64,000 nucleotides of DNA, taken from a virus. The DNA lies in the IMG/VR virus record IMGVR_UViG_3300008120_000241, positions 1 to 64,000 of that record; one strand, given 5' to 3'. Every line of letters begins with the position of its first letter. Position 1 is the stretch's first letter. Shown one piece after another: positions 1 to 57,777 of this stretch. The notes below the pieces were generated by a model, which did not search any database, was not told where the DNA came from, and worked only from the letters and a program-made list of their open reading frames with translations. The position numbers and the translations under genes are program-made.

Positions 1-215
1 CACCAACAAAACCTGAAGGTGTAACAATGCAAGAAATGATGGATTACATCAAAAAAAATACTTTGTTTTCTTACAAAGACATGGAAGAACATGAAGAAGA
101 TGAACCAGGTTGGATTGAAAAAACATATTTAGGAAAACTTCAAGGAAAAGAAAAAGAAAGAATTAATCAAGAAGATAGAGAAAATAATCCTGAACCATTT
201 GATGATAGATATTAA
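1..215 (+). CDS. 3' part of a hypothetical protein entering from the left edge
   Basis: Frame of ORF 27..215 is open back to the window edge (PTKPEGVT-MQE...). Confidence 0.6.
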   Translation, partial: PTKPEGVTMQEMMDYIKKNTLFSYKDMEEHEEDEPGWIEKTYLGKLQGKEKERINQEDRENNPEPFDDRY

Positions 216-220
216 ATAAG

Positions 221-589
221 ATGAATCTACAAGAAAACATAAGAAGAATATTAAAAGAAGAAACAGAAGGTATGTCACCACTAGAGCAGACAGTTGCTGA
301 TTTTATTAATATGAATCTATCTGAATATGATTTACCAGAAGACTTTGATAGAGTTGCCGTAGATATATTTGATAATGAATATGATAGAAAAGAGTGTGTA
401 GTGACCATATTATTTGAGAAACCATTTAATTTAAAAGATTCAGATAGAATGCATGATATAATGAATGAAATAAAAAAAGAAATCAAAAAATATTTTGGTG
501 ATACTTTTTGGTATATAAAATTAGGAACATCGACGGTAGATGTTTATAACAGTACCAAAGATTGGTACACCAAAAGAAAGAATAAATAA
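221..589 (+). CDS. Leader-A (MNLQENIRRILKEE) cargo protein, unknown function
   Basis: ORF with the repeated N-terminal leader. Confidence 0.8.
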   Translation: MNLQENIRRILKEETEGMSPLEQTVADFINMNLSEYDLPEDFDRVAVDIFDNEYDRKECVVTILFEKPFNLKDSDRMHDIMNEIKKEIKKYFGDTFWYIKLGTSTVDVYNSTKDWYTKRKNK

Positions 590-878
590 TGGAAGACATT
601 AAAATCCTTCACCTAAAAAGTAACGCACAAAAATTGGAAACTTGGGTTGCCATGTTAAATGGTGAAAAAAAATTAAATTCCTTGATGCTTGGGTTCATCA
701 CGACCATAGAAGAAAGGGAATCTACCGAATGTTGTGGGACACAAGGTGGGAATATGTTCAAGAAAATTATAAAGGGTGGATTGCCTTTGCCTGGTGTAAA
801 CCATCATCACTACCATTACTATTAGAAAAAGATTTCACAACCGGTGAAACTTGTACCTACGTTGAAAGAGAAATTTAA
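589..878 (+). pseudogene. GNAT-family acetyltransferase with a frame break at the A8 run (~665-672)
   Basis: After MEDIK...MLNGE the -1 frame reads KIKFLDAWVHHDHRRKGIYRMLWDTRWEYVQENYKGWIAFAWCKPSSLPLLLEKDF...EREI* (stop 876-878), containing the GNAT acetyl-CoA motif V-x-x-x-x-R-R-K-G-I. Confidence 0.7.
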
Positions 879-926
879 TCACAATTAATTTAGAAAAATC
901 AAATATTTTTTTGTATATTTACCATT

Positions 927-1196
927 ATGGTTAGTGGTACTATTTTAGAATATTTTGAAGATATAATGAGGGGTGGTTTCAGAGAGGATGTGCAAAAATA
1001 TTTAAGTTTTTTTAATGGTGATTGCGGACGTTTACTTATGACCGTCACAATTCCTTATGACTTACTTTCAAACATGAACAATAAACATTTTGATGATTAT
1101 ATGGTGCGGTTTACGAATTCAATAAATGAAAGAATGGTGAGGTATGGTTTTGAACTTAATAAAGATTACGTAATTGATGTAATAAGAACAGAATGA
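927..1196 (+). CDS. hypothetical protein (probable paralog of the next gene)
   Basis: C-terminal YGFELNKDYVI resembles SFGMRVNEDYKI of 1193..1456. Confidence 0.7.
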   Translation: MVSGTILEYFEDIMRGGFREDVQKYLSFFNGDCGRLLMTVTIPYDLLSNMNNKHFDDYMVRFTNSINERMVRYGFELNKDYVIDVIRTE

Positions 1197-1456
1197 ACCC
1201 AAAGTTAGAATATATCGAAGAATTGGTTAGAAATAATATTAGTGATGAACTTAAACATACATTAAACTTCACACTAAATGAAAATAATGTAGTACTAATC
1301 AATGTTAAATATGAAACATTAGATATGGTGCCTAGTGTATGGGGACAAATTATACGTAGAAGAATAGTTGAAACACTTTACTCATTTGGTATGAGAGTAA
1401 ATGAAGATTACAAAATAGAAACAGAAATATCATGGAAAAACACCTTACGACAATAG
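1193..1456 (+). CDS. hypothetical protein
   Basis: ATGA overlap with the upstream gene. Confidence 0.7.
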   Translation: MNPKLEYIEELVRNNISDELKHTLNFTLNENNVVLINVKYETLDMVPSVWGQIIRRRIVETLYSFGMRVNEDYKIETEISWKNTLRQ

Positions 1457-1845
1457 AATACATCAAAGACATACTTGAAGAAGATGATTTAGATATTACT
1501 TTTAAAAAAGGCAAATACGTCATTAAATTTATAATTGACGCTAAAAATAGCATGACTATGGATGCCATTGCAAAACTTAGAGGTATTGGTAAAAAAACTA
1601 TGACAGAATCAAAACTATTAACTTATTTTCCAAAGGAGTTATTTAAAATAGAATTGGAAACCATAAACAAACCAAAACCAAAACTAATGGTGATGGACTC
1701 GTTCAGTAGTGATGTTTACAAAAAGTTACTTGAACAACGTGTAATTCATAGACCAATAAACGTAAACACAACTGATACGGCATTGAATAATATTAATGGG
1801 TCTAATTATAGTACTACAGGAATAAATTTAAACCATCTAATTTAA
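1432..1845 (+). CDS. hypothetical protein
   Basis: ORF in operon-like run. Confidence 0.65.
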   Translation: MEKHLTTIEYIKDILEEDDLDITFKKGKYVIKFIIDAKNSMTMDAIAKLRGIGKKTMTESKLLTYFPKELFKIELETINKPKPKLMVMDSFSSDVYKKLLEQRVIHRPINVNTTDTALNNINGSNYSTTGINLNHLI

Positions 1846-1867
1846 AGTAGAACATATTTATAATAAT

Positions 1868-2824
1868 ATGCCATTAAAACAATCCATAAGAAAAATATTA
1901 AGGGAAGAAATCAACCCAAACAAACCAGACTTATACGAATTTGCCAAGTGGGGATTAACCGGTGAATATGAATATAGCGGATGTTGGGACGACAACGATT
2001 TGGATGGAGCGATTGAATGTGCGGTTGATGATTTTGAACAATTTTTAAATGAACCATACCCAACAGGGTTAGGTAATATACCAAAAAATCCAATTATATA
2101 CAGATTAATAAAACTAAATGAGATTAAAGATTTAAACAAAAACAATCTGGGAAAGAGTTGGTTCTCAAATCCAAATCAAATTAAGAATCCAGAGTTTTTT
2201 GATATGTTGGAATATTTAAAACCAGGACCAAACAATAAGGTATTTTTGATAAAAGGAAAAACAACAATTAATAACATTGATTTAAAAAGAACATTATGGG
2301 AAAGATCAACCCAATGGTGGGAAAATGAAATTGTAATTAAGGATGACACCAATATTGATATTTTGGACATAAAGGAATTAACAATGGATAAATACTTAAA
2401 GGAATCCAACAATAAGTTAAAGGAAAATGTCAATCCAATAATGGACTTAATTAATGAATTTGGTATAATGGCCGCAATGAAATTCACCGGGTTGACTTAT
2501 AAAGAAATAGAATCAAAAACAAATTTAACAAGAGATTACAAAATTCAATTCTTAAAAGATTTAATAGTTAGTTTATCTGACGATGAGGATGAAATATCAC
2601 TTGAATATTGGTTGGATCAACCAATCACTTATAAAATAGATGATGACGGTCAACATATACTTGAACGAATCCAGGTGGTTGATGATGAAGATTTAATATT
2701 AACAATTTATGTGTATGATATGGATGAATATGGTGAAATGAGGGATTTAAATTTTCTGTATAATATGGAGAATGAAGATATAACCGATGATGGATTGGAT
2801 ACTATAATTGAACATTTAATATGA
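1868..2824 (+). CDS. Leader-A cargo protein with putative R-S-E ADP-ribosyltransferase domain plus acidic C-terminal domain
   Basis: Leader MPLKQSIRKILREE; motifs IIYR / GKSWFS / WENEIV (R, S, ExE); TATTTAT upstream. Confidence 0.55.
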   Translation: MPLKQSIRKILREEINPNKPDLYEFAKWGLTGEYEYSGCWDDNDLDGAIECAVDDFEQFLNEPYPTGLGNIPKNPIIYRLIKLNEIKDLNKNNLGKSWFSNPNQIKNPEFFDMLEYLKPGPNNKVFLIKGKTTINNIDLKRTLWERSTQWWENEIVIKDDTNIDILDIKELTMDKYLKESNNKLKENVNPIMDLINEFGIMAAMKFTGLTYKEIESKTNLTRDYKIQFLKDLIVSLSDDEDEISLEYWLDQPITYKIDDDGQHILERIQVVDDEDLILTIYVYDMDEYGEMRDLNFLYNMENEDITDDGLDTIIEHLI

Positions 2825-3384
2825 ACTTAAAACAATCCATAAGAAGAATATTAAAGGAAGAAACGTCAATTAACCAAAAGGTTAAGGACATAATTTTAAA
2901 TGGAACTGATTTTGATGATTGGATTAAAGCGGTACAACTTCAATATGGGGATGTTGTCCCATTATATCACGCAACAACCGAACAGACATCAAAATTAATT
3001 GATAAGGAAGGATTCAAGTTAGTTGATGGAAAAAACTATAAGTCATTTTCAAACGAACCCATTTTATATTTCCAGATTGGAAAATCGGATTATGTGTCAA
3101 CAAACAGACCGGTATTATATAGATTGGATGTTCCGATTGAATTTTTATACAATGCCGAAATTGACAATGATGGTCCGGACATAAGTGATGAAGAACTTTT
3201 TAAATATGTGGATGAAACGGATTGGGATGAATTACCTTATGATATTAGGGACGCCATAATTTATTTTATATGGAATGATTTCAAACTTGACGGAACCGAA
3301 ATACTTATAAGTGATAGGTTTATGGATGATCCGAGTGAAGATATCTTCAAAGGGTTAAAACCGGTTAAAGTAAAGGACAATTAA
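2821..3384 (+). CDS. Leader-A cargo protein with putative ART-fold (HxT-type) domain
   Basis: Leader MNLKQSIRRILKEE; LYHATT...IDKEGF, LYF, VLYRLDVP pattern. Confidence 0.5.
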   Translation: MNLKQSIRRILKEETSINQKVKDIILNGTDFDDWIKAVQLQYGDVVPLYHATTEQTSKLIDKEGFKLVDGKNYKSFSNEPILYFQIGKSDYVSTNRPVLYRLDVPIEFLYNAEIDNDGPDISDEELFKYVDETDWDELPYDIRDAIIYFIWNDFKLDGTEILISDRFMDDPSEDIFKGLKPVKVKDN

Positions 3385-3385
3385 G

Positions 3386-3715
3386 ATGAATAACGAATTA
3401 GTGAAAAACAAATCGGACCTGATGGTTAACTGGCAATCAAAACTAATGATTGTCACATCAATAATTAATGATTTCTATCCGGATTTTAATTCTCAAAACG
3501 TATTTGTCAGAGATTCTGCCGGAGTTATAACGTATAGTGATAAAAAAACAACCGAAGAATATGCTTGGTTCTATCCTTCAACCAAAAAATTATATTTTGA
3601 TTGGGATATCTATCACGAGTTACAAAAATATTTGGGAGACGATTTGATGCCTTATTTAATAATGTGGTTCAATAAAGAATTTAAAACGGATGTCAAAAGA
3701 ATAAGCGCCGAATAG
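3386..3715 (+). CDS. hypothetical protein, paralog of 3718..4062
   Basis: Shared IN(D/E)xYPxFN...WFNxEFxTxVxxIS. Confidence 0.75.
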   Translation: MNNELVKNKSDLMVNWQSKLMIVTSIINDFYPDFNSQNVFVRDSAGVITYSDKKTTEEYAWFYPSTKKLYFDWDIYHELQKYLGDDLMPYLIMWFNKEFKTDVKRISAE

Positions 3716-3717
3716 AT

Positions 3718-4062
3718 ATGGGTTTACAAGAGAATATAATAAAAATATTAAAAGAGGATTTGAATAAAAAGGTTGAAAAAATGACCAAAATTGTTGGATT
3801 ATTCATTAATGAGTTATATCCAAATTTCAATGAGAATGATGTTAAAATTGATGTGTTTGATGATGATGTGAATTATATTGAAACATATTATGATCCGGTA
3901 ACACAATTCTTTTTTGCCAGATACGATGATAGACTGAGAGAATTAATCTTAAATACGGAAATATTGGAAACATTGGAAGGTTATTTTGGGGGTGATATGG
4001 AATATGTTATTGATTGGTTTAATAATGAATTTGGCACCAACGTGGAATATATAAGTAGTTAG
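3718..4062 (+). CDS. Leader-A-like (MGLQENIIKILKED) cargo protein
   Basis: Divergent leader; paralog of 3386..3715. Confidence 0.8.
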   Translation: MGLQENIIKILKEDLNKKVEKMTKIVGLFINELYPNFNENDVKIDVFDDDVNYIETYYDPVTQFFFARYDDRLRELILNTEILETLEGYFGGDMEYVIDWFNNEFGTNVEYISS

Positions 4063-4064
4063 TT

Positions 4065-4130
4065 ATGAAATTCAAGGATGAAAATAAAACCAAACAATTG
4101 GTTGCGGGGATTATGTCAAGTGAATATATT
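4065..4130 (+). repeat. Truncated copy (63/66 nt identical) of the 5' end of gene 5911..6165
   Basis: Direct comparison with 5911-5976. Confidence 0.9.
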
Positions 4131-4140
4131 TATTAATTAT

Positions 4141-4926
4141 ATGAACCCACAAGAAAAAATAAGAAGAATTTTAAGGGAAGAAGGATTTATACCCCTACCA
4201 ATCAGAAGAAGAGTAACTTCAAGTGATTTAGAAGAGGCATTTTATTATGCTTTAGAAACAAATGTCACATCTATGGATAACCCAAATTCTGTGATATACA
4301 AAGAAAAAAAACCATCATTATGGGTATTTTCAAAGTTCGTTATTGATGATATGGTTACTCTTTTAGAACAAGAATATTTTACTAATGACAACCGAATTTA
4401 TTTTAGTGATACCGAAGAGGATGACAAAACTTATCACAAAAAAATTAGACAACCACTACTTAGATATTATGGTAAAAGAATAAAAGAAAAGTACGATGAG
4501 ATTATGTCATCAAACGATGAAGAATTAATACAAGAATCCATAAGAAGAATTTTAAGGGAAGAAGTGGAACGAAATTATATTTTTGTTAGAACTGATGATT
4601 TTGATAATACTGGTACTGTAAGGGAATTACCTTACGATGGTATACATTGTTGGTGTATATATGAAGATGACTTTGACAAATACATAGATGAGCTTGAATT
4701 GTGGGGTGGAAGTAGAAAAAAAGTTAGGATAGTTGATGGTGAAAATTATAAAAAATACGCAACCAATTATAAAATGGCTCACGATTATGTTATGGGTGAT
4801 AGCGATGAAATTCCAAAATTAGAAAAATTTAATCCCGATGAACATATTATGAAATTTATAAAACAGGGTAAAAAATCTATGTTAAATTATGTTGCCAATA
4901 TGAAATATCAAATAATATTAATATGA
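4141..4926 (+). CDS. Two-module Leader-A protein (leader at the N-terminus and again internally at ~4528)
   Basis: MNPQEKIRRILREE ... LIQESIRRILREE; start moved to ATG 4141 behind TATTTAT. Confidence 0.8.
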   Translation: MNPQEKIRRILREEGFIPLPIRRRVTSSDLEEAFYYALETNVTSMDNPNSVIYKEKKPSLWVFSKFVIDDMVTLLEQEYFTNDNRIYFSDTEEDDKTYHKKIRQPLLRYYGKRIKEKYDEIMSSNDEELIQESIRRILREEVERNYIFVRTDDFDNTGTVRELPYDGIHCWCIYEDDFDKYIDELELWGGSRKKVRIVDGENYKKYATNYKMAHDYVMGDSDEIPKLEKFNPDEHIMKFIKQGKKSMLNYVANMKYQIILI

Positions 4927-5357
4927 ACCTACAAGAAAACATAAGAAGAATAATAAGGGAAGAATCAGATAAAGATATTTTAATTGATGGTTTGTATGAC
5001 CCAATATATGAAGAAAACGGGATTGTTCTATTTAATGAACCAAGACATTTAAAGATGTATTCTAAATTTGGCATTAAAAAATCAAATGTAATAAGTGGTA
5101 AAGAATTTAATAAAAAATATGTTGACTTTGATAATAAAAAACTTCACAAAGTGTTATACAAGGAAGGTATGACTTTGGGTGGTAATTTAGGTGAAGGTAA
5201 ATATTGGTGTTCCACTGAATATTGTTTAAGTGTTTATTTAGGGGAAACACACCAAAGCAGTGAATATTCCGAATACGTTAAAGGTGTGGTTGATTCTAAA
5301 TTGGGGGATGACCTAAAAATTTTGGTAAAGAAATATATTTCCGATGATTTATGGTAA
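4923..5357 (+). CDS. Leader-A cargo protein
   Basis: MNLQENIRRIIREE. Confidence 0.8.
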   Translation: MNLQENIRRIIREESDKDILIDGLYDPIYEENGIVLFNEPRHLKMYSKFGIKKSNVISGKEFNKKYVDFDNKKLHKVLYKEGMTLGGNLGEGKYWCSTEYCLSVYLGETHQSSEYSEYVKGVVDSKLGDDLKILVKKYISDDLW

Positions 5358-5371
5358 AAAATGATATTAAT

Positions 5372-5887
5372 ATGAACCTACAAGAATCCATAAGAAGAAT
5401 ATTAAGGGAATATTTGGAAGAAGCCAGGTTGTCCGATCTTTTAAAGGTTACCGGTAATAAAAGTGAACTACATAAATACATTGAGAAAGAAAAATCCAAG
5501 GAGTTTGAAATAGATAGGGAATTACCGACACAATTAACATTAAAAAAAAGATATAACAACAAAAAGATAAAAGTTTATTTTAATTGGTTTGACAATTCAA
5601 AACATGATTTAAAAAAAAGGATTAAAGAAAGGACTAACTTTAAAACAATTACAGAATTTGCTGATGTTTTTAATCAAGTTATTAATTATGTTTTACCGGA
5701 TGAACTGGGTGTAAATATTAGTGAAAATGGAAGATACGCCATTAATTTAAGTGAATATAACATTACAATCATATTTTCAATTAATCTGGATGATTTTGAT
5801 AACCAAAAAGTAACAATTAACGTTATTACCATACTACCAAAAAGTCAAATTGACGAAAAAAATATAATACAATTTTTTGTATATTAG
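5372..5887 (+). CDS. Leader-A cargo protein, possible BECR/RelE-like RNase fold
   Basis: MNLQESIRRILREY; SKH-x4-RIKER and terminal VITIL pattern (weak). Confidence 0.6.
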   Translation: MNLQESIRRILREYLEEARLSDLLKVTGNKSELHKYIEKEKSKEFEIDRELPTQLTLKKRYNNKKIKVYFNWFDNSKHDLKKRIKERTNFKTITEFADVFNQVINYVLPDELGVNISENGRYAINLSEYNITIIFSINLDDFDNQKVTINVITILPKSQIDEKNIIQFFVY

Positions 5888-5910
5888 AATAATTGTTGTA
5901 TATTTGTCAT

Positions 5911-6165
5911 ATGAAATTCAAGGACGAAAATAAAACCAAACAATTGGTTGTGGAGATTATGTCAAGTGAATATATTGATATTGTTTCTGGTAAGGGTTTA
6001 TTTTTTAATGACAATATAGTTTATGATAAGAATTTCTCACACATCACAAACGATAGTGAGTACCCACTTATAGAAGAAAAAGTAAAATCAATTGTTAAAT
6101 TAATAAATGAAGACCCAACTCTGGTCCATAAAGATTTGGAGGATGAATTATGGTATATGGTTTAA
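5911..6165 (+). CDS. hypothetical protein without leader, behind host-type promoter
   Basis: TATATTTG 5899-5906 upstream; terminator downstream. Confidence 0.75.
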   Translation: MKFKDENKTKQLVVEIMSSEYIDIVSGKGLFFNDNIVYDKNFSHITNDSEYPLIEEKVKSIVKLINEDPTLVHKDLEDELWYMV

Positions 6166-6171
6166 AAAGGT

Positions 6172-6200
6172 AATCCCACCCCAAAAGAGTGGGGTTTTTT
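6172..6200 (+). terminator. intrinsic terminator
   Basis: cccac...gtggg hairpin followed by T-run. Confidence 0.75.
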
Positions 6201-6225
6201 ATTTTTAATGGTATTTATTAATTAT

Positions 6226-6574
6226 ATGAACCTACAAGAAAACATAAGAAGAATATTAAGGGAAGAACTAAATAATAGGGGTGATTGTAATATTATGTAT
6301 GTCCCAGAACAACTATCTAAATTATATAGGTTTTCAAATCTGTGGGATATGGTGGTTAATGAAATTGATGAATTGATAGAAGTTTCTCAATTAGAAAAAG
6401 AATTATTACCAAAAGACATTACAGTATATTCAGTTCAAGAAATTATACATAATAGATGGGCATCATAGATTATGTTATGATAGAATAAATAATAGAGATT
6501 CCTATGTTTATATCTTTGATAAAGATGACAGTCAAATTGTTGATTGTATATTTTACGGTATAGGAGATTGTTAA
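6226..6574 (+). pseudogene. Leader-A cargo gene with ParB/Srx-like domain, frame-broken around 6395-6450
   Basis: +1 frame reads KKLYIIDGHHRLCYDRINNRDSYVYIF...GIGDC* (stop 6572-6574); IDGHHR is the ParB/Srx signature. Confidence 0.7.
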
Positions 6575-6575
6575 T

Positions 6576-7046
6576 ATGAACCTACAAGAATCCATAAGAA
6601 GAATATTAAGGGAAGAGTCACTAAAACACTCTTTAATTGATGAGATTAAAACTGAGGGGTGGTTTAATGTTTCACAATATGTGGGTGGTGATGAAGAACT
6701 TAAAAAGATTACCGAAATACATAACTCATACCAGTTTATGAAATTGTTTTTAAATATAACCCCAAAACAAAGTGATGAGAGACCTGAAATGATATTATAT
6801 AAAAACGAAATGGGGGTCAATCTTTTTATTCATGTGTTTAATAATAATCTTAATGAGTATATGGTTTACTTCAATGGTGATATAACATATAGACCATTAC
6901 AATTTTTTTTAGAAACGAGACCATTAGGGGAAAGAAATGAGTTTTTAAACAAATGGTTAAGAAAAAATTACAAAATAAATGTAGCTGACCGCAACATAGT
7001 TTGGTTTGATCCCAAGGAGGACAGTTATTTAACGTATTTAAATTAA
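6576..7046 (+). CDS. Leader-A cargo protein, paralog of 7944..8390
   Basis: MNLQESIRRILREESLKHSLIDEIK. Confidence 0.8.
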   Translation: MNLQESIRRILREESLKHSLIDEIKTEGWFNVSQYVGGDEELKKITEIHNSYQFMKLFLNITPKQSDERPEMILYKNEMGVNLFIHVFNNNLNEYMVYFNGDITYRPLQFFLETRPLGERNEFLNKWLRKNYKINVADRNIVWFDPKEDSYLTYLN

Positions 7047-7048
7047 AG

Positions 7049-7942
7049 ATGAAGATAAAATCAATTAAGGTTATCAAAGGAAAAAATAGATGGAGCGATT
7101 CCAAAGATAAACTTATTCATATGGTTCTAGATTTAGGTGAATTTGAAGAAAAACCATCAAATAAAATAAAAGGGTTTTATGAAAGAATAAAAAAACATTT
7201 ACCTTCATTAAAAAGTCATAGATGTTCAGAAGGAAAACCAGGTGGATTTTTAAATAGAATTAAAGAAGGAACGTGGATGGGACACATTATAGAACATGTT
7301 GCTTTAGAATTACAGACATTGGCGGGTTATGATACAGGATGGGGAAGAACAAGAGGTGTTAAAGGTCAAAAAGGTGTATATAATGTAGTATTTAATTATG
7401 AAGATGAAGAATGTGGTAAAATGGCTGCAAAAGAGGCATATAACGTTGTTAAAGATATTATAAATGATAAAGACCCACAAATAGATAATATAGTTAAAAA
7501 ACTAAAACCAAAAAAACAAATTAGGGAATCCATAAGAAGAATATTAAACGAGGAGTCACTAAAACAAACCCTCTTGGACGAGATAATGAGATCGGGAATA
7601 AGAGACACGGCAAGTATAATGAGTGTGGATGTGAAAGAACTTTTAGATATGGTGGGGATTACAGGAACAAAAGAAGATATGATATTTCTTATTAAATCAA
7701 TAATGAAAAATGAGGCTAAAGAAAAATTTGATTACTGTAGTTATAATATTGTACCATCACCACATTATATTACATTATATGTTTATATACCTAAACCATT
7801 ACCCGAACACGAAGGTGTATGGGCTTATGATCAATCGGTACGTTATAGAGTGGAAGAATTAATAGGTCATTTGTTATCCAAATTAGGTGGTGGATTAATC
7901 AGAGGACATTATTTATATGTATATAATACAGGAGATTGTTAA
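7049..7942 (+). CDS. Cyanophycin synthetase N-terminal-like domain fused to an internal Leader-A module
   Basis: DLGEFEEKPS...HRC-x19-HIIEHVALELQTLAG..GWGRTR...GVYNVVFNY; then QIRESIRRILNEESLKQTLLDEI. Confidence 0.8.
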   Translation: MKIKSIKVIKGKNRWSDSKDKLIHMVLDLGEFEEKPSNKIKGFYERIKKHLPSLKSHRCSEGKPGGFLNRIKEGTWMGHIIEHVALELQTLAGYDTGWGRTRGVKGQKGVYNVVFNYEDEECGKMAAKEAYNVVKDIINDKDPQIDNIVKKLKPKKQIRESIRRILNEESLKQTLLDEIMRSGIRDTASIMSVDVKELLDMVGITGTKEDMIFLIKSIMKNEAKEKFDYCSYNIVPSPHYITLYVYIPKPLPEHEGVWAYDQSVRYRVEELIGHLLSKLGGGLIRGHYLYVYNTGDC

Positions 7943-7943
7943 T

Positions 7944-8390
7944 ATGAATCTACAAGAAAACATAAGAAGAATATTAAGGGAAGAGTCACTAAAACAAACT
8001 TTAATTGATGAGGTTAAAAATAACGGTGTACAAGAAACCGCCGAACTTGTGGGAGGAATAAGTAATCTTATAGGTATATTAGAAATAGAAACACCAATGG
8101 ATTTCTTAAACATATATAATGATTTGGAAATTGTGGAAAGTGAAGAAAAACCAGATTATTATTTATTCAGACATAACAAAAATGATAACGTTATAATGTA
8201 CAACAAAAAAACTGATTTTATGTTATATAATCAAGATAAATTCTGGCCAGTATTTACGATTCACTTTAAAATGAACCACTATGACATTAATGATATGATT
8301 TCAAATTGGTTAAAAAATAAGTTCAACATAACGATACCTAGTACAAGAATAACAAACGTACCACAATCACAATATACAAGATTATCTTAA
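7944..8390 (+). CDS. Leader-A cargo protein, paralog of 6576..7046
   Basis: MNLQENIRRILREESLKQTLIDEVK. Confidence 0.8.
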   Translation: MNLQENIRRILREESLKQTLIDEVKNNGVQETAELVGGISNLIGILEIETPMDFLNIYNDLEIVESEEKPDYYLFRHNKNDNVIMYNKKTDFMLYNQDKFWPVFTIHFKMNHYDINDMISNWLKNKFNITIPSTRITNVPQSQYTRLS

Positions 8391-9356
8391 ACAACCTATT
8401 TAAGTCACAGGATAACTTTAATTCATTCAAACAAGGTAAGACCCCAGAACATATCAAAAACACTCTAAGATTAAAGAAAATACATATAATCAGAATATAT
8501 GATTAATTCACTCGTCTCATAGTCCTTCACTACCGTTCGGAATTCGCCTCATAATTTAATCATACATTCTTGTGTTCATTATTTTATTCTGTTCATTGTC
8601 ACTGAACATAAGATTATACTGAAACACATTCCCCCTCCTTTAAACTAACACCATTTAATTAAGGTCCCCATTTAATAACCCCCCAATATATTGTCCCCCA
8701 GTATAATGGATTATTTTAATGTGGTTAGAAGTATGTTCCATTTTTATTCCGGATAGGTATAACGTTGTTATTAATGGAGGGGGAATAAATGAAGGAACCA
8801 TAACGAAGGGACTGTTATGTTTTGTAGTATATGTATAAGGTTAAACCTTGCTTAGATACTACAATTAGTAAGTCCCATCTCCTCTTAGTCGTGGGGACTT
8901 TAAGTAAGTCCCACATTTTACCACAAGTGATGAAATCCTATTCGTTGGGGGTGAAATTATGTCACATTTACATGTTCCATACGTTGGAATGACTATAGGA
9001 CTAACGTCTCCCCCGGCCTTAACTATTATATGAAATTTTTAGCGGGAAAACGTATATAGTAAAAAAAATGGCTTTCTAGATACCTACAGAGGGGATTTTT
9101 TAAGGTGTGGATATCTACAGGACCAATTATGGTGGGAGAAAGTGGTAAGTAATTGTGGTAATTTATGGGATGAGGGGATTGTGTCGTGTGTGAAGTCCAA
9201 CTGACATTTTGTCATTTCCTAATATTTTAACAAAAAGTTATTAACTATTTCCCCAATTTTACCACTAACATAGACAATATAATATGTGTTTACATTAACC
9301 AATAAGTTACTAACATTTATGTGGACATTAAATAATGCCCCCACAAAATATTACAA
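8391..9356. other. ~1 kb gene-free region with C-rich to G-rich switch and hairpins (origin/terminus/ncRNA candidate)
   Basis: No ORF >=60 aa; hairpin aagtccca...tggggactt ~8870-8900; TGACATTTTGTCA 9202-9214. Confidence 0.4.
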
Positions 9357-9677
9357 ATGGATCCAATAGATAAATTTATCAGAGAAAATTACACCCCAAC
9401 GATAACTGAGACCAAAATGGGGATCAGTTGTTTGTTCAAACATAAGGAGGGATTGACTGAAGATAGTGTTGTATTTTTTGAGTTCGCCAAAAAACAATGG
9501 TCAAAGAAACCGATAATGAATAAAAGACAATATGTGATTGTGGACGCTGATACCAGGGATCTGATTCAGTTTTTGTCCAACTACTATAATCTGGATGAAC
9601 AAAGTTACAATGGGGTGAGAAAGATAATTGTGGACATGAGTATTGAGGCTCTTGATAAATTTTATGGGGAGGAGTGA
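9357..9677 (+). CDS. hypothetical protein
   Basis: 106-aa ORF with normal composition. Confidence 0.7.
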   Translation: MDPIDKFIRENYTPTITETKMGISCLFKHKEGLTEDSVVFFEFAKKQWSKKPIMNKRQYVIVDADTRDLIQFLSNYYNLDEQSYNGVRKIIVDMSIEALDKFYGEE

Positions 9678-10237
9678 TTTTCCAAAGTAATGATATATTT
9701 ATATGTAAGATGATTATTTTCCCCCGAGCTGGGAATTAGTTAATCAAAGTCCTGGTGACTTGTAAAGATTAAGATGATCATTTAAAAAACAACAATAAAA
9801 TAAAAATCCACAAAAGAGTGGGTAAGGGTTTTTATCTTCCATTACATTTGTATTGGGAGAATTTTTATTGTCCATAAGTTTGGAAATCTCAATTATTTTT
9901 TGTATCTTTGTTCTGTAACTGTTTGACAAAGATGGGGACCGAGTGGACTCCAACACGTCCCAACTTTTTTGAATTTATATAGGTAGGTTGGAGTCTACCC
10001 TCTGCGAGAGTTATTCTCCCGAACCCGTCTCGGTTATTACCATTGACAATATAAAGGTAGGGATAATTTTTGACATATACAAATAAATCCCCCAATATAT
10101 TTTAATAACCACTAATAATCGTTAATAAGTTCTAATAAGTGTTAATAACCAGGGGGAAAATATAAAAAGGGCAAGAGGTAAGCCACAATAGGTTTCTGGT
10201 GGCACAGACACATCTACTTACTTAACCCTTTTTAATA

Positions 10238-10471
10238 TTAATGGTTTTTAACATTACGTTCCCAATATACATAACCGGGAGTGGGATCTTCAACTGGTTG
10301 ATTTGTTTTGGCTGAAATAAATATGATCATTGATATGATCGTATATAACCAAAACCATATGGCGTACTTCCCGGTGTGACCTTTAATGTACCACTTAACA
10401 AACCAAACCAATAATATAATAATTGATATGGTTGAAAAGATCTTGTATAAGTATTTTAGAACATCCAACAT
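10238..10471 (-). CDS. small membrane protein (2 TM)
   Basis: Two hydrophobic segments; coupled to the upstream gene by TAATG overlap. Confidence 0.7.
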   Translation of the reverse strand: MLDVLKYLYKIFSTISIIILLVWFVKWYIKGHTGKYAIWFWLYTIISMIIFISAKTNQPVEDPTPGYVYWERNVKNH

Positions 10472-10707
10472 TAATCCAAGTTTATATTATGACTATTCAT
10501 AATCTCCCAAAGTTTATCCCTCAGTTCTGATACAATATTATATTGTTCGGATGTTAACTCCTTGTTGTTGTGATACCCATGTTTAACAATGGATCTTAAT
10601 TCCTGGTCCAGATCCCATAAAGTCAACTTATATTTATAACCATCAATGACCATTCTTATTTCATCGGCCTCTTCGGTTGAATCAAATTTAAATATTACTT
10701 CTCCCAT
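10471..10707 (-). CDS. hypothetical protein
   Basis: Minus-strand operon. Confidence 0.75.
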   Translation of the reverse strand: MGEVIFKFDSTEEADEIRMVIDGYKYKLTLWDLDQELRSIVKHGYHNNKELTSEQYNIVSELRDKLWEIMNSHNINLD

Positions 10708-10942
10708 TCTTATTTATTTCCCTGGCTTCATCCAGTAGTGATACAATATGTTCATAATCAAAATGATTTATCTCCCCAATCTCACCGGCCTTTAATACAT
10801 CTTCCTTGGTATACCCCCTCTGATCTTCTTCCATTTGTTTGGCTTGTTCAATAAGTCTATTAAATATTCCAGGATAAATAATCATATCTTCATTCAATAA
10901 TTTATTCTCAAGCCATCCAACCGCGGACAATTCTTTTTCCAT
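10688..10942 (-). CDS. hypothetical protein (start MEKELSAVGWL)
   Basis: TATCTTTG host-type -7 box just upstream on the minus strand. Confidence 0.75.
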   Translation of the reverse strand: MEKELSAVGWLENKLLNEDMIIYPGIFNRLIEQAKQMEEDQRGYTKEDVLKAGEIGEINHFDYEHIVSLLDEAREINKNGRSNI

Positions 10943-11324
10943 ACCACAAAGATACATATTATAATCCACATAAACAAATTTATTTATTAACAGGGGGTGC
11001 TGATAACTTATATGGGCTCCCTAGTACTTTGGTATAGGGGCTCCCCCTATTTTGGGGGTGGGGTATCCTGGGTCCCTCCTGCCATTTTGTCAGGGTCTAA
11101 TACCCCCTACAATCCCCCAAATAAAATAAAATCTATTTAAAACAAAAAAGGGGATGTATCCTTAAAAAATATTTTTGGGAATTTTTCAGAAAATCCGGAA
11201 ACCCCCATTATGGAAATATCATAGGGTTTTTATTTTATGTCAAAAAACTTTTCAACATAAAAAGGGGTCAAAATATAAAAATAAATTTTTCAGAAAACCA
11301 GAGTATTTATTATTAAAGTATATT

Positions 11325-11675
11325 ATGAAAAAAATAGTTAGATTAACGGAATCGGATTTAACAAGAATTGTTAAACGAATATTAAATGAACAAAGGGAAG
11401 AAAGTGATACGGTAATTGAAATTACAAAGGTGGTGCCGGATGAACGTTCAAAGCGTAAACCAAAAAATAAATTTCACGTTAACTACCAAACCATCATTAA
11501 TGATAATTTAATTGAAATTGAAGGTACGTTAATTCCATATCATACTGGTAGAAGTATGGAATATGAATTTCAACCGGATTATTTTATGGATGAAGATACT
11601 GAACAATATTATGATGAAAATTGGGAAGATGTTGAAAAAGAAATTTTAAGTAAATTTTATGAAAGTATTTTTTAA
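11325..11675 (+). CDS. Leader-B (MKKIVRLTESDLTRIVKRILNEQ) cargo protein
   Basis: Start corrected to ATG 11325 behind TATTTAT. Confidence 0.8.
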   Translation: MKKIVRLTESDLTRIVKRILNEQREESDTVIEITKVVPDERSKRKPKNKFHVNYQTIINDNLIEIEGTLIPYHTGRSMEYEFQPDYFMDEDTEQYYDENWEDVEKEILSKFYESIF

Positions 11676-11821
11676 AAAAAATAAACATATTTAAGCAAAC
11701 CCCATTCCTAATAAGAGTGGGTTTTTTATTTTATGTCAAAAAACTTTTCAATATAAAAAGGGGTCAAAATATAAAAATAAATTTTTCAGAAAATCAGAGT
11801 ATTTATAATTAAAATAATATT

Positions 11822-12145
11822 ATGAAAAGAATTATAAAATTAACTGAATCAGATTTAACAAGAATTGTTAGACGAGTTATTATGGAATCTACCGGTGAGA
11901 AATACGAAGTTAAACAGGTTAGCCCAACTTCAAGCGGTAAGTATAGTTTTAAATTAGTAATAACGGACCCATACAAAAAAACAACAAAGTCAATATCTGG
12001 AACATTTGATTGTGAATCATTAACAACAACTTTAGATGGAAAAATTGTAGATAACACTAATCTATATAATCAAGTAAATTTATCTTATATTAAACCATTT
12101 TTTTATGGTTATAATGATAACTATTGTAAAATGAAAAAGGACTAA
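11822..12145 (+). CDS. Leader-B cargo protein
   Basis: MKRIIKLTESDLTRIVRRVIMES. Confidence 0.8.
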   Translation: MKRIIKLTESDLTRIVRRVIMESTGEKYEVKQVSPTSSGKYSFKLVITDPYKKTTKSISGTFDCESLTTTLDGKIVDNTNLYNQVNLSYIKPFFYGYNDNYCKMKKD

Positions 12146-12476
12146 TCGATATAAAACTGTAAATCTAACTTATATTAACCCCCCAACGAATGAGGGGTTT
12201 TTTATTTTATGTCAAAAAACTTTTCAATATAAAAAGGGGTCAAAATATAAAAATAAATTTTTGGAAAAATTTGGGGAAATTCCAAAATATACCAATAAAT
12301 AAAATTTGTGGCAATAATTGGATTTTCCTTATTTGACATATTAACATTAAAACATATGAATAATTTGGATTATATCCATATGAGTGGTTATTTTGATATG
12401 TAATTTCTTGAAAAATTTTTTAAACAAAATCTCCCCCAAACCCCCTCTTTTTGTTTTTTGGTATATTTATCTTTAT

Positions 12477-12749
12477 ATGAGCAAGATTATTAAATTAACG
12501 GAATCACAATTGGTAACCATTATTGAACGTGTTGTTAATGAGGCCGATTTTAGTGTTGAACCACAAATCCCTTCACAACCCAGAGAAAAAGACATTAAAG
12601 ATGTGTTCGGCGAAAAATATGGGGCTTATATTCCAATTGACGTTTTAAGATACATGAGAAAATCTCCGGCAAGGATTTTTAATCGTCTGTATGATATCTA
12701 TGGTGATATGGCGTATGAATATCTTGACCGAGCAAAAAATAAAAAATAA
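12477..12749 (+). CDS. Leader-B cargo protein
   Basis: MSKIIKLTESQLVTIIERVVNEA; TATTTAT upstream. Confidence 0.8.
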   Translation: MSKIIKLTESQLVTIIERVVNEADFSVEPQIPSQPREKDIKDVFGEKYGAYIPIDVLRYMRKSPARIFNRLYDIYGDMAYEYLDRAKNKK

Positions 12750-12778
12750 TATCAAATTTTTTTATTATCTTTGCTCTT

Positions 12779-13291
12779 ATGTCACAAGAACTAAAAGAAA
12801 ATATCAAAGATTATTTCAATAAACATATTAGAGATAAAGAATGGAATAACAACAAGAATCAATTCCAAACTTATTTTCGTTCCATGTTGAAATTATTGAA
12901 TTTGGCCTTAACTGATCCTGACTTTTCTTCAGATGTTACCCAAAAGGTGATGTATAGATTATTATTTGGTTATAATGGAATTGGTAAACACGGGATTTCA
13001 ACAAAACTTAAAACAACCGAATCAATTGGGTTGCCCGCAAATAAAAAAACAGATGACCATGTTTTTGGTGCCGTTGAGATTGGAAGGTTTATTAGGGAAG
13101 AATTTGAAAAACATAATTTGGATATTGATTATATGGTTGATGTTTGGTTGTATGAACATCTTTTTTTGTGGTCTAAAATCAAAGTTTCCAAAAATGAACA
13201 TCAAAAAGATAAAATTGAACGGAACAAACATTCCATTCAACAAAAAATGAACCTGGAACATTATAAGGGTGTTTCAAAAATTGTTTTTTGA
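12779..13291 (+). CDS. hypothetical protein without leader, host-type promoter
   Basis: TATCTTTG just upstream. Confidence 0.75.
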   Translation: MSQELKENIKDYFNKHIRDKEWNNNKNQFQTYFRSMLKLLNLALTDPDFSSDVTQKVMYRLLFGYNGIGKHGISTKLKTTESIGLPANKKTDDHVFGAVEIGRFIREEFEKHNLDIDYMVDVWLYEHLFLWSKIKVSKNEHQKDKIERNKHSIQQKMNLEHYKGVSKIVF

Positions 13292-13306
13292 TGTATTTAT
13301 ATCTAT

Positions 13307-14089
13307 ATGAAAATCATTATTACAGAAGAACAATATAAAAAACTATTTGAAATAGATTATAGAAATCTTGATGACATTATAAAGTTTGGTGAGTTTTCTG
13401 AATATTTTAAAAAAGACGATTTAAAAAAAATTAATAAGTTTTTACTTCTTATTAGAGATCTTGGCGTTGTTAATATGTTCCAAGCAGGTGATTTTCTTTT
13501 AATGTCAATTGATTATTTTAAAGACTTTATGAGACTGAAATCATATGAAAGGGATTTTGATGAAGATATAATTTCTGAAATTGAGGAGATATTACCTGAT
13601 ATTAAAAACATTATGGTAGGTGCTGGAATAAGTTATGTTGAAAGTAAAGGTAATGAGATTACACCAAAAAGTGTTGGAAGAGCAATTAGAATGCTTACTT
13701 CAAGTATAATGAAATATTATATGTCACAAAATTTGCCAAATGTTAATGAATCATATGATAAGGAAAAAAACTTTTTGAGAAATCATTTTGGTTTTGATTT
13801 TTCTGATAAAATCAAACTGATAACCTCAACTTATGATGTCCCAACTAGTTTTGATGTTTGTCTTAGCTCCCTTAGTACGAGTCTTTGGTTAAATTATTGG
13901 GGTCCGATGTTTCTTTTTGAGCTTGATGGTGTAAATTATCTTTATCAAGATAGAGGTGATTTTGAATTTTTTTTTGGTGACGATTGTGATACCTACACTG
14001 ATAATGAAATTCCGGAACGACTCGGAATAGCCGAAATGGGATTCAAATTTTCTGATATAATTGATATATATTTTGATGAACAAATGTAA
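13307..14089 (+). CDS. Leader-C (MKIIITEEQYKKLFE) two-domain cargo protein
   Basis: TATTTAT upstream; internal VNES junction. Confidence 0.75.
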   Translation: MKIIITEEQYKKLFEIDYRNLDDIIKFGEFSEYFKKDDLKKINKFLLLIRDLGVVNMFQAGDFLLMSIDYFKDFMRLKSYERDFDEDIISEIEEILPDIKNIMVGAGISYVESKGNEITPKSVGRAIRMLTSSIMKYYMSQNLPNVNESYDKEKNFLRNHFGFDFSDKIKLITSTYDVPTSFDVCLSSLSTSLWLNYWGPMFLFELDGVNYLYQDRGDFEFFFGDDCDTYTDNEIPERLGIAEMGFKFSDIIDIYFDEQM

Positions 14090-14109
14090 TTTTTTATTAT
14101 ATTTGTATT

Positions 14110-14337
14110 ATGAATTTTATTGAATCCGAAAAGTTTTTATTGAACTTGACTGTTGGTGAAGGTTATAATAATGTGACCGTTGTTAAAAGAACCCCCAATA
14201 GAATATATCTATCAAATGACAAAATTGTCCACATTAAGAAGGGAAATGGTTTTAAATACCTGGACGCAAAAGGTTTGTCAATTAAACAAATCCTAAGAGA
14301 TATTGAAGGTTATTTGGTGTATTTAAAACATTGTTAA
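14110..14337 (+). CDS. small hypothetical protein
   Basis: TATATTTG upstream. Confidence 0.7.
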   Translation: MNFIESEKFLLNLTVGEGYNNVTVVKRTPNRIYLSNDKIVHIKKGNGFKYLDAKGLSIKQILRDIEGYLVYLKHC

Positions 14338-14420
14338 TGAAACGTAAAATCCAATTTATTTTTTTGTGGTTATCTTATAAGTTACCAAAGAAAAAAAGAA
14401 AAACCATTTGGGAATTATAA
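14337..14420 (+). CDS. 27-aa basic peptide MKRKIQFIFLWLSYKLPKKKRKTIWEL (not in ORF track)
   Basis: TAATG coupling to the previous gene; fills the gap. Confidence 0.5.
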   Translation: MKRKIQFIFLWLSYKLPKKKRKTIWEL

Positions 14421-14442
14421 AAATAATTCGTATTATTGTTTT

Positions 14443-14961
14443 ATGTGCAATAATTTCCCATCCCCAAACTATCAACTAAAGGTAAGTTACCCATTTTCAT
14501 ATTTAAAATATCCACATCAACATTATTTTAGATTGATTGAGGATTTTATGTCTTTTATGTATGATGGGATTGATTTTAGAGTTATACCACATAGAGAAGG
14601 TTATGATATTTTTATTTTAAATGTAAATCCCTATAAAGAATACAACCCATTTAATTTTGATCCAAGTTATAGAGTAAAGACGGAAGGAGGTTTTACGCAC
14701 ATACATCAATTTGAATTATTTAAAACCTTTTATGGGTACATTCCGGACATTGTCCCGTATTTAAATTTTAAACTTGCGGCACATCCAAGTTGTTTTAATA
14801 TGGGAGGAGTTAAATTTGACCATAATGGTGTATTTGAAGAGTTTAATTTAAAAGAATATTACTTTAGAGAAGAAGGTTCTAGACAATATTACAGTAATGA
14901 AAGAATGTCTGAGTATGAACCAATAGGTAATATGGTTAGATATGACGAATTTACTTGGTAG
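14443..14961 (+). CDS. hypothetical protein
   Basis: 172-aa ORF. Confidence 0.7.
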   Translation: MCNNFPSPNYQLKVSYPFSYLKYPHQHYFRLIEDFMSFMYDGIDFRVIPHREGYDIFILNVNPYKEYNPFNFDPSYRVKTEGGFTHIHQFELFKTFYGYIPDIVPYLNFKLAAHPSCFNMGGVKFDHNGVFEEFNLKEYYFREEGSRQYYSNERMSEYEPIGNMVRYDEFTW

Positions 14962-14975
14962 TTATATTTATCATT

Positions 14976-15671
14976 ATGGATGAAAAGATAATCAAAATAT
15001 ATTATGAAACTTTTTTGGAAGACGAATATGATTTTAATGGAATTATATTGACCCCATACCTTAATAGAGAAGAAGATAGAATTGATTGGGAGGTAGATAA
15101 CCCACAAAAAGTATCAGTTTCTAAATCAAGAATTATAGATTACATCCATGATCTTTTTTATGATTTTTGTCAGTATGTTGGTTCGGGACTAAAAGGTCAA
15201 AGAGTAATTTATGATTCTTTACAAAGAGCAGCAACAAATTTATCTCCAACATTTAACTTTCCAGGTGGTGATGTTTTTTTAAATCAAAAAGATAAAATTA
15301 AACTTTTATTAATTTTAACTGGTATAAAACAAATTGTTTATACCACAACAGAAGGTAATAAATATATTTTTGATATTGAAATTGATGATTTTAGATTTGA
15401 TAATAGATATGCTGAAGAATTTTATTGTGGATTTGATGTTAAATTTTTATTAGGGACAAAAAATGGTGAAGAAATAGGTGATAGTGAGATGAGTGAATGT
15501 GTTAGTGATGTTTTTAGAGAAGATGAATTTATTGATTATCAAAATGGTTTAATGTTACCATTTTGGGGACCAATAATTAATAACCCTCTTTTATTTGAAC
15601 TTAGAGAAACTTATTATTCTAATGATTTTCTTCCGTATGATAAAAATGGAAATAAAATTGATTTTTATTAA
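14976..15671 (+). CDS. hypothetical protein (distant paralog of 21116..21778)
   Basis: TATTTAT upstream; shared NPxxVS and TKNGE motifs. Confidence 0.7.
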   Translation: MDEKIIKIYYETFLEDEYDFNGIILTPYLNREEDRIDWEVDNPQKVSVSKSRIIDYIHDLFYDFCQYVGSGLKGQRVIYDSLQRAATNLSPTFNFPGGDVFLNQKDKIKLLLILTGIKQIVYTTTEGNKYIFDIEIDDFRFDNRYAEEFYCGFDVKFLLGTKNGEEIGDSEMSECVSDVFREDEFIDYQNGLMLPFWGPIINNPLLFELRETYYSNDFLPYDKNGNKIDFY

Positions 15672-16108
15672 TGTTTACAGAAAAAGAAATAGAAAAAATT
15701 AATAGGTTTTTATCTGACCAAACTTTTGAGTGTTCATCGACACTTATTGGTGGTAGAGACATGCCATATTTTAATTTTAATTTTGAGTATCAGTTTGCAA
15801 TTACAGGTATTAAACAAATGATCTCTGTTGGTGAGTGGTATGATAATGTAAAGGTATATGTTGAAATAATTGATATTGAAGATAAGTTCAAAAAATTCTA
15901 CGGTATTTTAGGTAAACACTACAATAAAGAAGAACTAACAAATATATTTTTCAAAAAGGAATACGTTTTTACACATAGATTAAATGAATGTATAAGTGAT
16001 ACGTTAAAATATTTCACCTCTGATGAATTTGTTAGAATTTATTTTGACAATATCATTATGTCAGACAATTTATATGAAACGATAAAAAATACTGAAGATA
16101 CGGCTTAG
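15671..16108 (+). CDS. hypothetical protein
   Basis: TAATG-coupled. Confidence 0.75.
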   Translation: MFTEKEIEKINRFLSDQTFECSSTLIGGRDMPYFNFNFEYQFAITGIKQMISVGEWYDNVKVYVEIIDIEDKFKKFYGILGKHYNKEELTNIFFKKEYVFTHRLNECISDTLKYFTSDEFVRIYFDNIIMSDNLYETIKNTEDTA

Positions 16109-16171
16109 GACCGATATTGCTATGGCAATATGAACCCCCATAAGTGTCGCTACCTGTGGGGGTTTTTGTTT

Positions 16172-22969: not shown

Positions 22970-22983
22970 ATTTATATAAATAT

Positions 22984-57765: not shown

Positions 57766-57777
57766 TTAAATAATATT

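Follow-up and report, generated by a model that had tools for sequence, protein, structure and literature searches.

The stretch of DNA analysed here, hereafter the window, comprises the first 64 kb of the 76.8-kb viral record IMGVR_UViG_3300008120_000241 from IMG/VR, the completeness of which is 26% according to CheckV. Its source is an uncultured jumbo phage of the T4 superfamily from a lake that encodes a capsid protein of the gp23 type and a prohead protease of family S77, and the GC content of the window is 27-38%. The locus at positions 221-8390 contains a tandem array of small genes, many of which open with the same short coding leader, termed leader A. Twelve copies of leader A, each 42 nucleotides long, are located on the plus strand between 221 and 7985 and encode the peptide MNLQE[S/N]IRRILREE. 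The leaders occupy about 6% of the array length. Their DNA is nearly the same from copy to copy, and the cargo that follows them differs in content and order between related phages.

Organization of the cassette array

A pattern with 30 specified bases, allowing up to three mismatches, recovered ten leader copies, all on the plus strand, between 230 and 7984, while 0.00 were expected from 100 shuffles. Two weaker copies, at 3718 and 7514, were added from the reading frames. The twelve leaders start at 221, 1868, 2821, 3718, 4141, 4522, 4923, 5372, 6226, 6576, 7514, and 7944. Ten of them begin at an ATG, and the other two are internal, at 4522 within gene 4141-4926 and at 7514 within gene 7049-7942.

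All genes and features of the array described below are on the plus strand. Copy 1 (221-262, MNLQENIRRILKEE) opens gene 221-589, and copy 2 (1868-1909, MPLKQSIRKILREE) opens gene 1868-2824. Copy 2 has a TATTTAT motif 6 nucleotides upstream, and the block of homology to L105, a metagenome contig from a relative, stops at 1908. Copy 3 (2821-2862) is followed by a cargo with a predicted ADP-ribosyltransferase-like fold (gene 2821-3384). Copy 4 is degenerate (MGLQENIIKILKED) and heads the cargo gene 3718-4062, whose paralogue 3386-3715 is leaderless. Next to it, positions 4064-4133 hold a gene remnant, composed of the first 70 nucleotides of a gene like 5911-6165 (94% identical) and joined to the promoter-like stretch before the 4141 leader. 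This remnant is a scar from a duplication and an internal deletion. Gene 4141-4926 consists of two cassettes fused in frame, in which copy 5 (4141-4182) and its cargo are followed by the internal copy 6 (4522-4563) and a second cargo. Copies 7 (4923-4964) and 8 (5372-5413) open the cargo genes 4923-5357 and 5372-5887. The sole terminator-like hairpin with a T-run within the array is located at 6178-6205, followed by TATTTAT (6212-6218) and then by the next leader.

Copy 9 (6226-6267) carries a broken cargo (6226-6575). Correcting the initial annotation, gene 6226-6468 is a pseudogene with a frameshifting 83-nucleotide deletion after 6439, and its former 3' end (about 6437-6575) still reads ...GIGDC*. 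A ParB-like reading of the intact form of this gene, suggested by the motif IIDGHHR, was dropped, as Pfam support was absent. Copy 10 (6576-6617), extended by SLKxxLIDE, opens gene 6576-7046, homologues of which are found at 90-93% identity in many metagenomes. In the fusion gene 7049-7942, a cyanophycin-synthase-like N-terminal domain (PF18921, E 1.3e-45) precedes the internal copy 11 (7514-7555) and its cargo. Copy 12 (7944-7985), also extended, opens gene 7944-8390, a distant paralogue of 6576-7046. The genes at 589, 927, 1193, 1432, 3386, and 5911 lie in the interval and lack leader A, which is a second correction.

Pfam and PHROGs searches with all array proteins returned nothing beyond the cyanophycin-synthase N-domain. 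With the leaders stripped, BLASTP relates only four pairs of cargo (3718/3386, 6576/7944, 7514/7944, and 927/1193). These pairs excepted, the ten N-terminal leaders sit on bodies without BLASTP similarity, in line with the initial annotation, which had described the downstream cargo as mostly unrelated.

The leader is conserved as DNA

The mean pairwise identity of the leader copies is 0.79 over the 42 nucleotides and 0.88 over codons 7-14, compared with 0.31-0.36 in the adjoining 42-nucleotide blocks. As the initial annotation had noted, the copies keep the same synonymous codons. The rare TCC encodes all six serines of the window leaders (genome usage 9-11%), the rare AGG all eight arginines at codon 12 (16-20%), and the rare CTA six of the nine leucines at codon 3 (9%), while ATA occupies codon 7 in all twelve.

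The same DNA is found in other phages. In IMG/VR, 59 stretches contain the exact 23-mer ATAAGAAGAATATTAAGGGAAGA, and no copy turned up in 596 Gb of prokaryote genomes; therefore, no host can be named from the leader. A scan of IMG/VR with a codon-blind IUPAC pattern for QExIRRILRE[D/E] yielded 75 unique copies, 53 of which carry the identical 23-mer, whereas about 0.7% would be expected from codon usage. Among these copies AGG is present in 72 of 75, ATA in 73 of 75, TCC at 42 of 49 serines, and CTA at 51 of 72 leucines. The phages that carry the leader are diverged, with proteases 64-70% identical at the protein level to that of the window, and in the relative G001 (98.7 kb) DNA identity to the window is 65-77% over the genes for terminase, portal, and protease. 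As a control, the second leader type, leader B, was scanned for with LTESDLTRIVKRV. Its 95 copies drift freely in codons, and the commonest 39-mer was seen three times. As leader B drifts in a comparable scan, only leader A is frozen, and neither codon bias nor a search artefact accounts for this. The leader motifs were not found in a literature search.

The pair 6576/7944 allows a leader and its cargo to be compared within the same two genes. Over codons 1-24 the two copies have 92% DNA identity and the same codon in 18 of 19 shared residues, and beyond codon 24 they have 47% identity and the same codon in 14 of 26. Synonymous divergence, which the initial annotation had proposed to compare, is thus almost nil between leader copies and saturated between cargo paralogues. 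The two copies also share about 17 nucleotides upstream and about 40 nucleotides downstream (90% over 100 nucleotides), and the frames ahead of both end in GDC*, as had been seen before.

An ordinary tandem paralogue family, in which purifying selection on the protein preserved the N-terminus and likeness reflects ancestry, would account for the few cargo pairs that are distant paralogues. However, synonymous sites are frozen in the leader and saturated in the bodies, and the control leader B behaves differently. In addition, most bodies are unrelated, the same body occurs with different leaders, and a cassette can reach 95-99% identity between phages with about 72% identity in their core genes. 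This explanation is already contradicted by the codon and mosaic data, and we regard it as scarcely tenable.

Among 439 leader-like copies, a sample ascertained through DNA similarity, 685 replacement and 461 synonymous differences from the consensus were counted. The outcome resembles that of repeated copying in the recent past with subsequent decay rather than that of ancient divergence under strict selection on the peptide.

Alternatively, the frozen sequence could be selected as RNA or DNA, either as the unstructured, purine-rich start of short-leadered mRNAs that aids translation without a Shine-Dalgarno sequence or as an operator, with shuffling as a by-product. The leader DNA is indeed nearly structureless (minimum free energy 0 to -2 kcal/mol), and for three of four copies 165-200 of 200 shuffles fold at least as well. 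Moreover, TATTTAT stands 5-20 nucleotides before many start codons, including those at 1868, 4141, and 6226, which implies very short 5' untranslated regions, and the freeze is limited to leader A while leader B drifts. Low structure alone, however, needs no one exact codon set. The internal copies without a start codon (16 of the 75 in IMG/VR) keep the same DNA, and most array leaders are located in operon-like runs where the upstream motif is absent. In some cases the identity continues about 17 nucleotides upstream and covers the last part of the gene before, which speaks for copying and against selection, and the operator version has no known regulator. Selection on the RNA or DNA as the main cause of the freeze therefore appears quite unlikely to us.

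Locus content varies and breaks cluster at leader edges

G001 has one cassette in common with the window, at 6224-6616, with 95-99% identity. Homology starts at the ATG of the 6226 leader, the DNA upstream being unrelated, and stops at the last codon of the 6576 leader, beyond which the cargo differs. The 6226 leader is itself a mosaic, reading IRRIL in the window and IKKVL in G001. In G001, the 6226-type cargo is read through from the preceding cassette, so that the two form one fused open reading frame.

The contig L105 (28.9 kb) keeps both flanks of the locus, matching window positions 8-509 at 80% and 8543-16165 at 69-87%. Between the flanks it contains other cassettes in another order, with pieces matching 7663-7988, 6573-6750, and 6216-6650 in that sequence. 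Two further relatives are closer to the window. L102 (92-95% identical) lacks 7062-7531, which encodes the cyanophycin-synthase N-domain, and its gene opens with an N-terminus of the leader type, which places the right-hand break within the leader. In L103 (92-94% identical), the end of 7049-7942 and the next leader are followed by three other cassettes and then by the 6576 cargo.

Population variants were compared in Logan contigs from four lake and freshwater studies. Leader-to-leader joints with short sides (21-43 nucleotides) were taken for mapping ambiguity between repeat copies and set aside; the comparison relied on joints shared by two studies and on long contig pieces. A form without 4035-4921, with its right junction at the ATG of the 4923 leader, and a form without 932-1201 are each present in two studies. 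One contig links the 4923 cargo to the 6576 cargo via 378 nucleotides of other DNA, and in another contig gene 221 and the N-domain are just 1.7 kb apart. Loose ends of Logan contigs accumulate at 6225/6226, 6266/6267, 6616/6617, and 7944.

The breaks between close relatives fall at seven leader-edge sites (1908, 6216/6224, 6572, 6616, 6650, 7531, and 7988/7989) versus four elsewhere. Across the IMG/VR loci, 74 of 236 internal segment ends (at least 88% identity) are located in a leader or within 6 nucleotides of it, compared with 7.4 expected, although many of these ends do not represent separate events. Of the 74, 61 lie at the 3' edge of a leader. Because BLAST runs through conserved leaders, junctions are placed at the leader and not at an exact crossover nucleotide. 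The initial annotation had proposed that the repeat acts as a recombination site for gain, loss, and shuffling of cargo. This proposal is supported by the content and order of the array, which differ among L105, G001, and the Logan variants, by the concentration of breaks at the leader, and by the synonymous comparison. The array is thus not invariant among relatives, and its breakpoints as a whole are not unrelated to the repeat.

Mechanism of cassette exchange

The array had also been described as integron-like. This holds as an analogy, since, like integrons, the locus has tandem single-gene cassettes separated by a recurring site and a variable payload. A true integron-like system would employ a dedicated site-specific recombinase acting on the 42-bp repeat, and such a system would suit repeats that are direct, regularly placed, and sharply bounded, as well as relatives that differ by cassette-sized units. 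However, an IntI-type tyrosine recombinase (PF00589, Phage_integrase) was found neither in the contig, which is 26% complete, nor in four of five complete leader-A genomes. Furthermore, the repeat contains no folding palindrome of the attC type, as the leader DNA (0 to -2.1 kcal/mol) folds no more stably than shuffled sequences, and it is translated as part of a coding sequence. The half-leaders at fusion joints and the mosaic leaders are what crossovers at varying positions in a homologous stretch would leave. The locus is not an integron, and a site-specific system of this kind is highly improbable.

RecA-like open reading frames of about 340-360 residues are present in four of the five complete relatives; their matches are sub-threshold, and they fit a UvsX-type recombinase. 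The absence of an integrase, the lack of folding potential, and the RecA-like reading frames together make general homologous recombination on 42 bp of identity the simplest mechanism. We infer this mechanism, as well as the direction of the individual events, and consider ordinary homologous recombination likelier than a site-specific system. The half-leaders and mosaic leaders at the joints fit homologous recombination too.

The head module of the carrier phage

The window encodes a T4-type head module. The prohead protease (Peptidase_S77, T4 gp21 family, E 1.6e-22) is located at 55235-55939 and the major capsid protein (Gp23 family, Pfam E 2.3e-74) at 59755-61575, both on the plus strand. 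Genes for a portal protein with a probable intein, a terminase, and an acidic scaffold-like protein are also present. Two leader B genes (MKK..LTESDLTRI.KRVI.E) are located between the protease and scaffold genes, at 56725-58155 on the plus strand. Judged by the capsid protein, far-T4 phages of Flavobacterium and Microcystis are the closest cultured relatives, with an identity of about 43%. Among GenBank phages, no DNA match to the record was obtained, and neither leader type nor the array was matched at the DNA or protein level. The S77 protease is encoded in 18 of 26 large leader-A records and in nine of the ten that are at least 90% complete; near-complete leader-A genomes measure about 257-322 kb.

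The portal gene (50508-53486) contains an in-frame insertion of 1159 nucleotides at 50782-51940 with an HNH-like motif. The G001 portal lacks this insertion, its flanks being contiguous there. The insertion probably encodes an intein that contains a homing endonuclease. For the large terminase there are two overlapping reading frames, 48738-49472 and 49447-50466, in place of one, and G001 matches the whole span unbroken at 72%. The split at 48738-50466 may reflect a frameshift, an assembly error, or recoding.

The leader peptide as a probable capsid-targeting tag

In T4, gp21 cleaves after L/I-x-E, and the first 10 residues of the internal protein IPIII constitute an N-terminal capsid-targeting propeptide that is removed once the protein is loaded into the scaffolding core (PMC9026906). 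In the leaders, cleavage after L/I-x-E would be expected from the S77 protease at 55235-55939. Two such motifs occur in leader A, L-Q-E (NLQE, residues 3-5) and L-R-E (ILRE, residues 11-13), and leader B has L-T-E and I-x-E at the matching positions. T4 core proteins are also cut at several sites. In the capsid protein of the window, I-N-E|A is present at residue 60, just ahead of where alignment with mature T4 gp23* begins.

The family of the 2821-3384 cargo provides a view of how the leader is attached. In a 27-member alignment that includes the window protein, the same body is preceded by leader A, by a leader of the MNLQEQINRI..MMG.NE type, by one of the MKDLKQFIKTTIREFL.EN type, or by no leader, the leaderless member being the one bacterial homologue. 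Despite these changes of leader type, [LIV]-x-E is found at the junction of leader and body in 22 of 26 homologues. In the AlphaFold model of 2821-3384, the leader forms a separate low-confidence helix before a confident domain. In the longer homologues two cassettes are fused in frame, and a complete leader or half of one remains where they meet. Taken together, these features suggest that leader A is a tag that can be exchanged, is bounded by protease sites, and can be cut off, and that it probably acts as a capsid-targeting propeptide like that of T4. When residues 1-40 of the 6576 protein were modelled in complex with the S77 protease, the prediction scored 0.00, which is evidence neither way.

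A role for the leader outside the capsid was also considered. The leader would then be a shared peptide module, such as a docking helix for a shared hub protein or a host target, or a tag for oligomerisation or stability, and the cargo would be expressed in the ordinary way and act inside the infected cell. Internal copies and copies after an N-terminal domain would suit such a module, most array genes are distant from the head module, and the leader is not known to resemble the T4 capsid-targeting sequence. Nevertheless, both L-x-E motifs are kept, and the [LIV]-x-E stays at the junction when the leader type changes. Leader A, moreover, goes with phages that carry the S77 protease, and leader B genes are located inside the head module. 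We therefore hold a non-capsid role to be unlikely.

Further stereotyped N-termini (MKIIITEEQ... and ..EI.RIK.LM..) are found on larger proteins at 13307, 21824, 22364-22996 (minus strand), 25805, 26239, 27890, and 19358, and one such type substitutes for leader A on homologues of the 2821 cargo.

A cargo with a possible ADP-ribosyltransferase-like fold

For 2821-3384, 48 homologues were found, and H50, Y83-F84-Q85, and E160 are invariant in 27 family members. Pfam gave no match for this protein, and the ESM Atlas provided only a weak DarT/PARP lead. The predicted structure has a pLDDT (predicted local distance difference test) of 90.5. Its top PDB matches are all ADP-ribosyltransferases, at weak scores (Foldseek E about 0.01, VIA Z 5-6.8), and include ParT, DarT1, diphtheria toxin, PARP16, Tpt1, and TreTu. 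The model thus weakly suggests an ADP-ribosyltransferase-like fold with a candidate H-Y-E-type pattern. T4 Alt is a head-packaged ADP-ribosyltransferase cut by gp21 (PMC9026906), and by analogy it would be the obvious counterpart of this cargo.

The sole cellular homologue of this cargo (P0092) belongs to the Bacteroidota bacterium Cecembia calidifontis and is leaderless, which hints at the host phylum and at the origin of the cargo. In a metagenomic homologue (P0085), the protein has an N-terminal domain with an HExxH-like motif, HEWTHEYQH, resembling the HELAHQYQ of the leader B protein 56725-57765. This resemblance indicates that cargo modules recombine across leader classes.

Other elements of the window

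The motif TATTTAT is located 5-20 nucleotides upstream of about half of the plus-strand start codons, head genes included, with examples at 1855, 4127, 6212, 11304, 13294, 17290, 21104, 27878, 53489, and 55214. In total, the window contains 75 occurrences compared with 55 +/- 8 in shuffles. As this excess is modest, it is the position before start codons that the promoter idea draws on, and TATTTAT is a candidate phage promoter that would give very short 5' untranslated regions.

A non-coding repeat of 97 nucleotides, 95% identical between its copies at 11224-11320 and 11720-11816, is composed of a terminator tail, a spacer, and TATTTAT. Both copies directly precede genes with leader B (LTESDLTRIV). 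The repeat is an expression cassette resembling the PeSL (promoter-early stem-loop) elements of T4-type phages, and it may be a second shuffling element.

Directly 3' of the array, positions 8400-9350 contain no long open reading frames and are conserved at 69-87% in L105 and about 72% in G001. A search of positions 1-13000 against Rfam gave no match, and thus none for this stretch. On the minus strand, a ClpB/ClpC-like AAA+ ATPase reading frame (42097-44316) has a Hint/intein-like segment preceding its Walker A motif.

Discussion

The locus resembles the internal-protein loci of T-even phages combined with PeSL shuffling, and it differs from them in that the repeat is a coding leader, that its DNA is nearly invariant across a diverged family, and that recombination builds fusion proteins. 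T-even internal proteins are diverse, the capsid-targeting sequence being their only conserved portion (PMC3012670), and the loci that encode them vary greatly (PMC2839356). In common with these loci, the window has a T4-type head, a gp21-family protease, and a locus that varies strongly between relatives. It also has a short, probable N-terminal propeptide ending in L/I-x-E on otherwise unrelated small proteins, and a cargo that plausibly includes injected enzymes, as with T4 Alt. In contrast, leader A has a different and longer sequence (14 residues, two cut motifs), and up to 12 tandem cassettes are present rather than one to a few genes. Its nucleotides are frozen across phages whose core proteins are 64-70% identical, and it also occurs internally, joining fused modules. 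Packaging and cleavage are here deduced from sequence, and the carriers are uncultured jumbo lake phages with genomes of about 260-320 kb.

PeSL cassettes mediate modular shuffling in T4-type genomes (PMC2839356, PMC4122927). Both PeSL and leader A are short conserved repeats that flank orphan genes in hyperplastic regions and provide homology for the gain, loss, or replacement of single genes. PeSL, however, is a non-coding promoter and hairpin between genes, whereas leader A is coding, unstructured, and inside the gene; therefore, its exchanges are in frame and able to fuse protein modules. A coding junction is also known from Rhs and contact-dependent inhibition (CDI) systems. There, a conserved coding junction is followed by a hypervariable orphan C-terminal toxin module, and arrays of alternative modules keep a piece of this junction, through which homologous recombination can swap them. 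The array described here lacks an Rhs/CdiA core and a pairing with immunity genes, and its junction is located at the N-terminus of small free-standing genes of a lytic phage.

We propose that leader A plays two roles, as a recombination joint in DNA and as a capsid-targeting propeptide in protein, and we assign this reading a probability of roughly 0.6, with good confidence in its cassette-exchange part and moderate confidence in its capsid-targeting part. Positions 221-8390 would represent a hyperplastic cargo locus, in which the cassettes are small, mostly orphan proteins with a 14-residue amphipathic leader. The repeat itself, the conservation of its DNA, the variability of the locus in content and order, and the clustering of breaks at leader edges are directly observed. 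Repeated head to tail, the leader DNA supplies 42 bp of near-identity, within which phage machinery of the UvsX/RecA type may cross over in frame. Such crossovers would delete, duplicate, fuse, or exchange cargo, within a genome as well as between co-infecting relatives, and the same exchanges would homogenise the leader copies, a form of concerted evolution. The leader peptide, in turn, would bring the cargo into the prohead core and then be cut off by the S77 protease, so that the cargo would consist of head-packaged, injected proteins.

Several observations weigh against this proposal. On the peptide side, packaging and cleavage are read from motifs that are short and common. Leader A is not known to have significant similarity to the T4 capsid-targeting sequence, with which it presumably overlaps at most in a Q-E-x-I core. 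About one fifth of the leader copies in IMG/VR are internal rather than N-terminal, and the excess of replacement over synonymous differences also means that the leader peptide is only moderately constrained. Furthermore, leader B, whose role is presumably the same, shows no such freeze in its DNA, and an RNA- or DNA-level function peculiar to leader A is therefore possible. On the exchange side, four of about 13 breaks between close relatives are off the leaders (509, 1198, 7061, and 7663). BLAST segments run through any conserved leader, so that simple mosaicism at gene boundaries would already put some of the ends at leader edges. Illegitimate events also took place at the locus, namely the 83-nucleotide deletion and the 70-nucleotide remnant at 4064-4133.

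More tentatively, leader A may be kept identical in DNA across a family of jumbo lake phages and thereby sustain a community-wide pool of cassettes. Any cargo or domain could be spliced at the same 42 bp, and the peptide would direct the product to the capsid and carry the cleavage site at which the protease parts fused modules. We consider this extension conceivable, though somewhat doubtful.

Variation of injected internal proteins at polymorphic loci is known from T-even phages, although only a few coliphage genes have been studied. In the uncultured jumbo phages described here, the same principle appears on a larger scale. What is new compared with T4 is a coding leader, nearly invariant in its nucleotides, that marks the borders of cassettes differing between relatives and population variants. 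If the two-role reading is correct, the leader would be a simple sequence marker with which the packaged effectors of a large phage group could be catalogued in metagenomes, and the locus would represent a natural form of in-frame module exchange that also makes fusion proteins. It would, in addition, be a clean system in which to ask whether recombination homology is itself selectively maintained. If the community-wide pool exists as well, the array would constitute a phage counterpart of exon shuffling for injected effectors.

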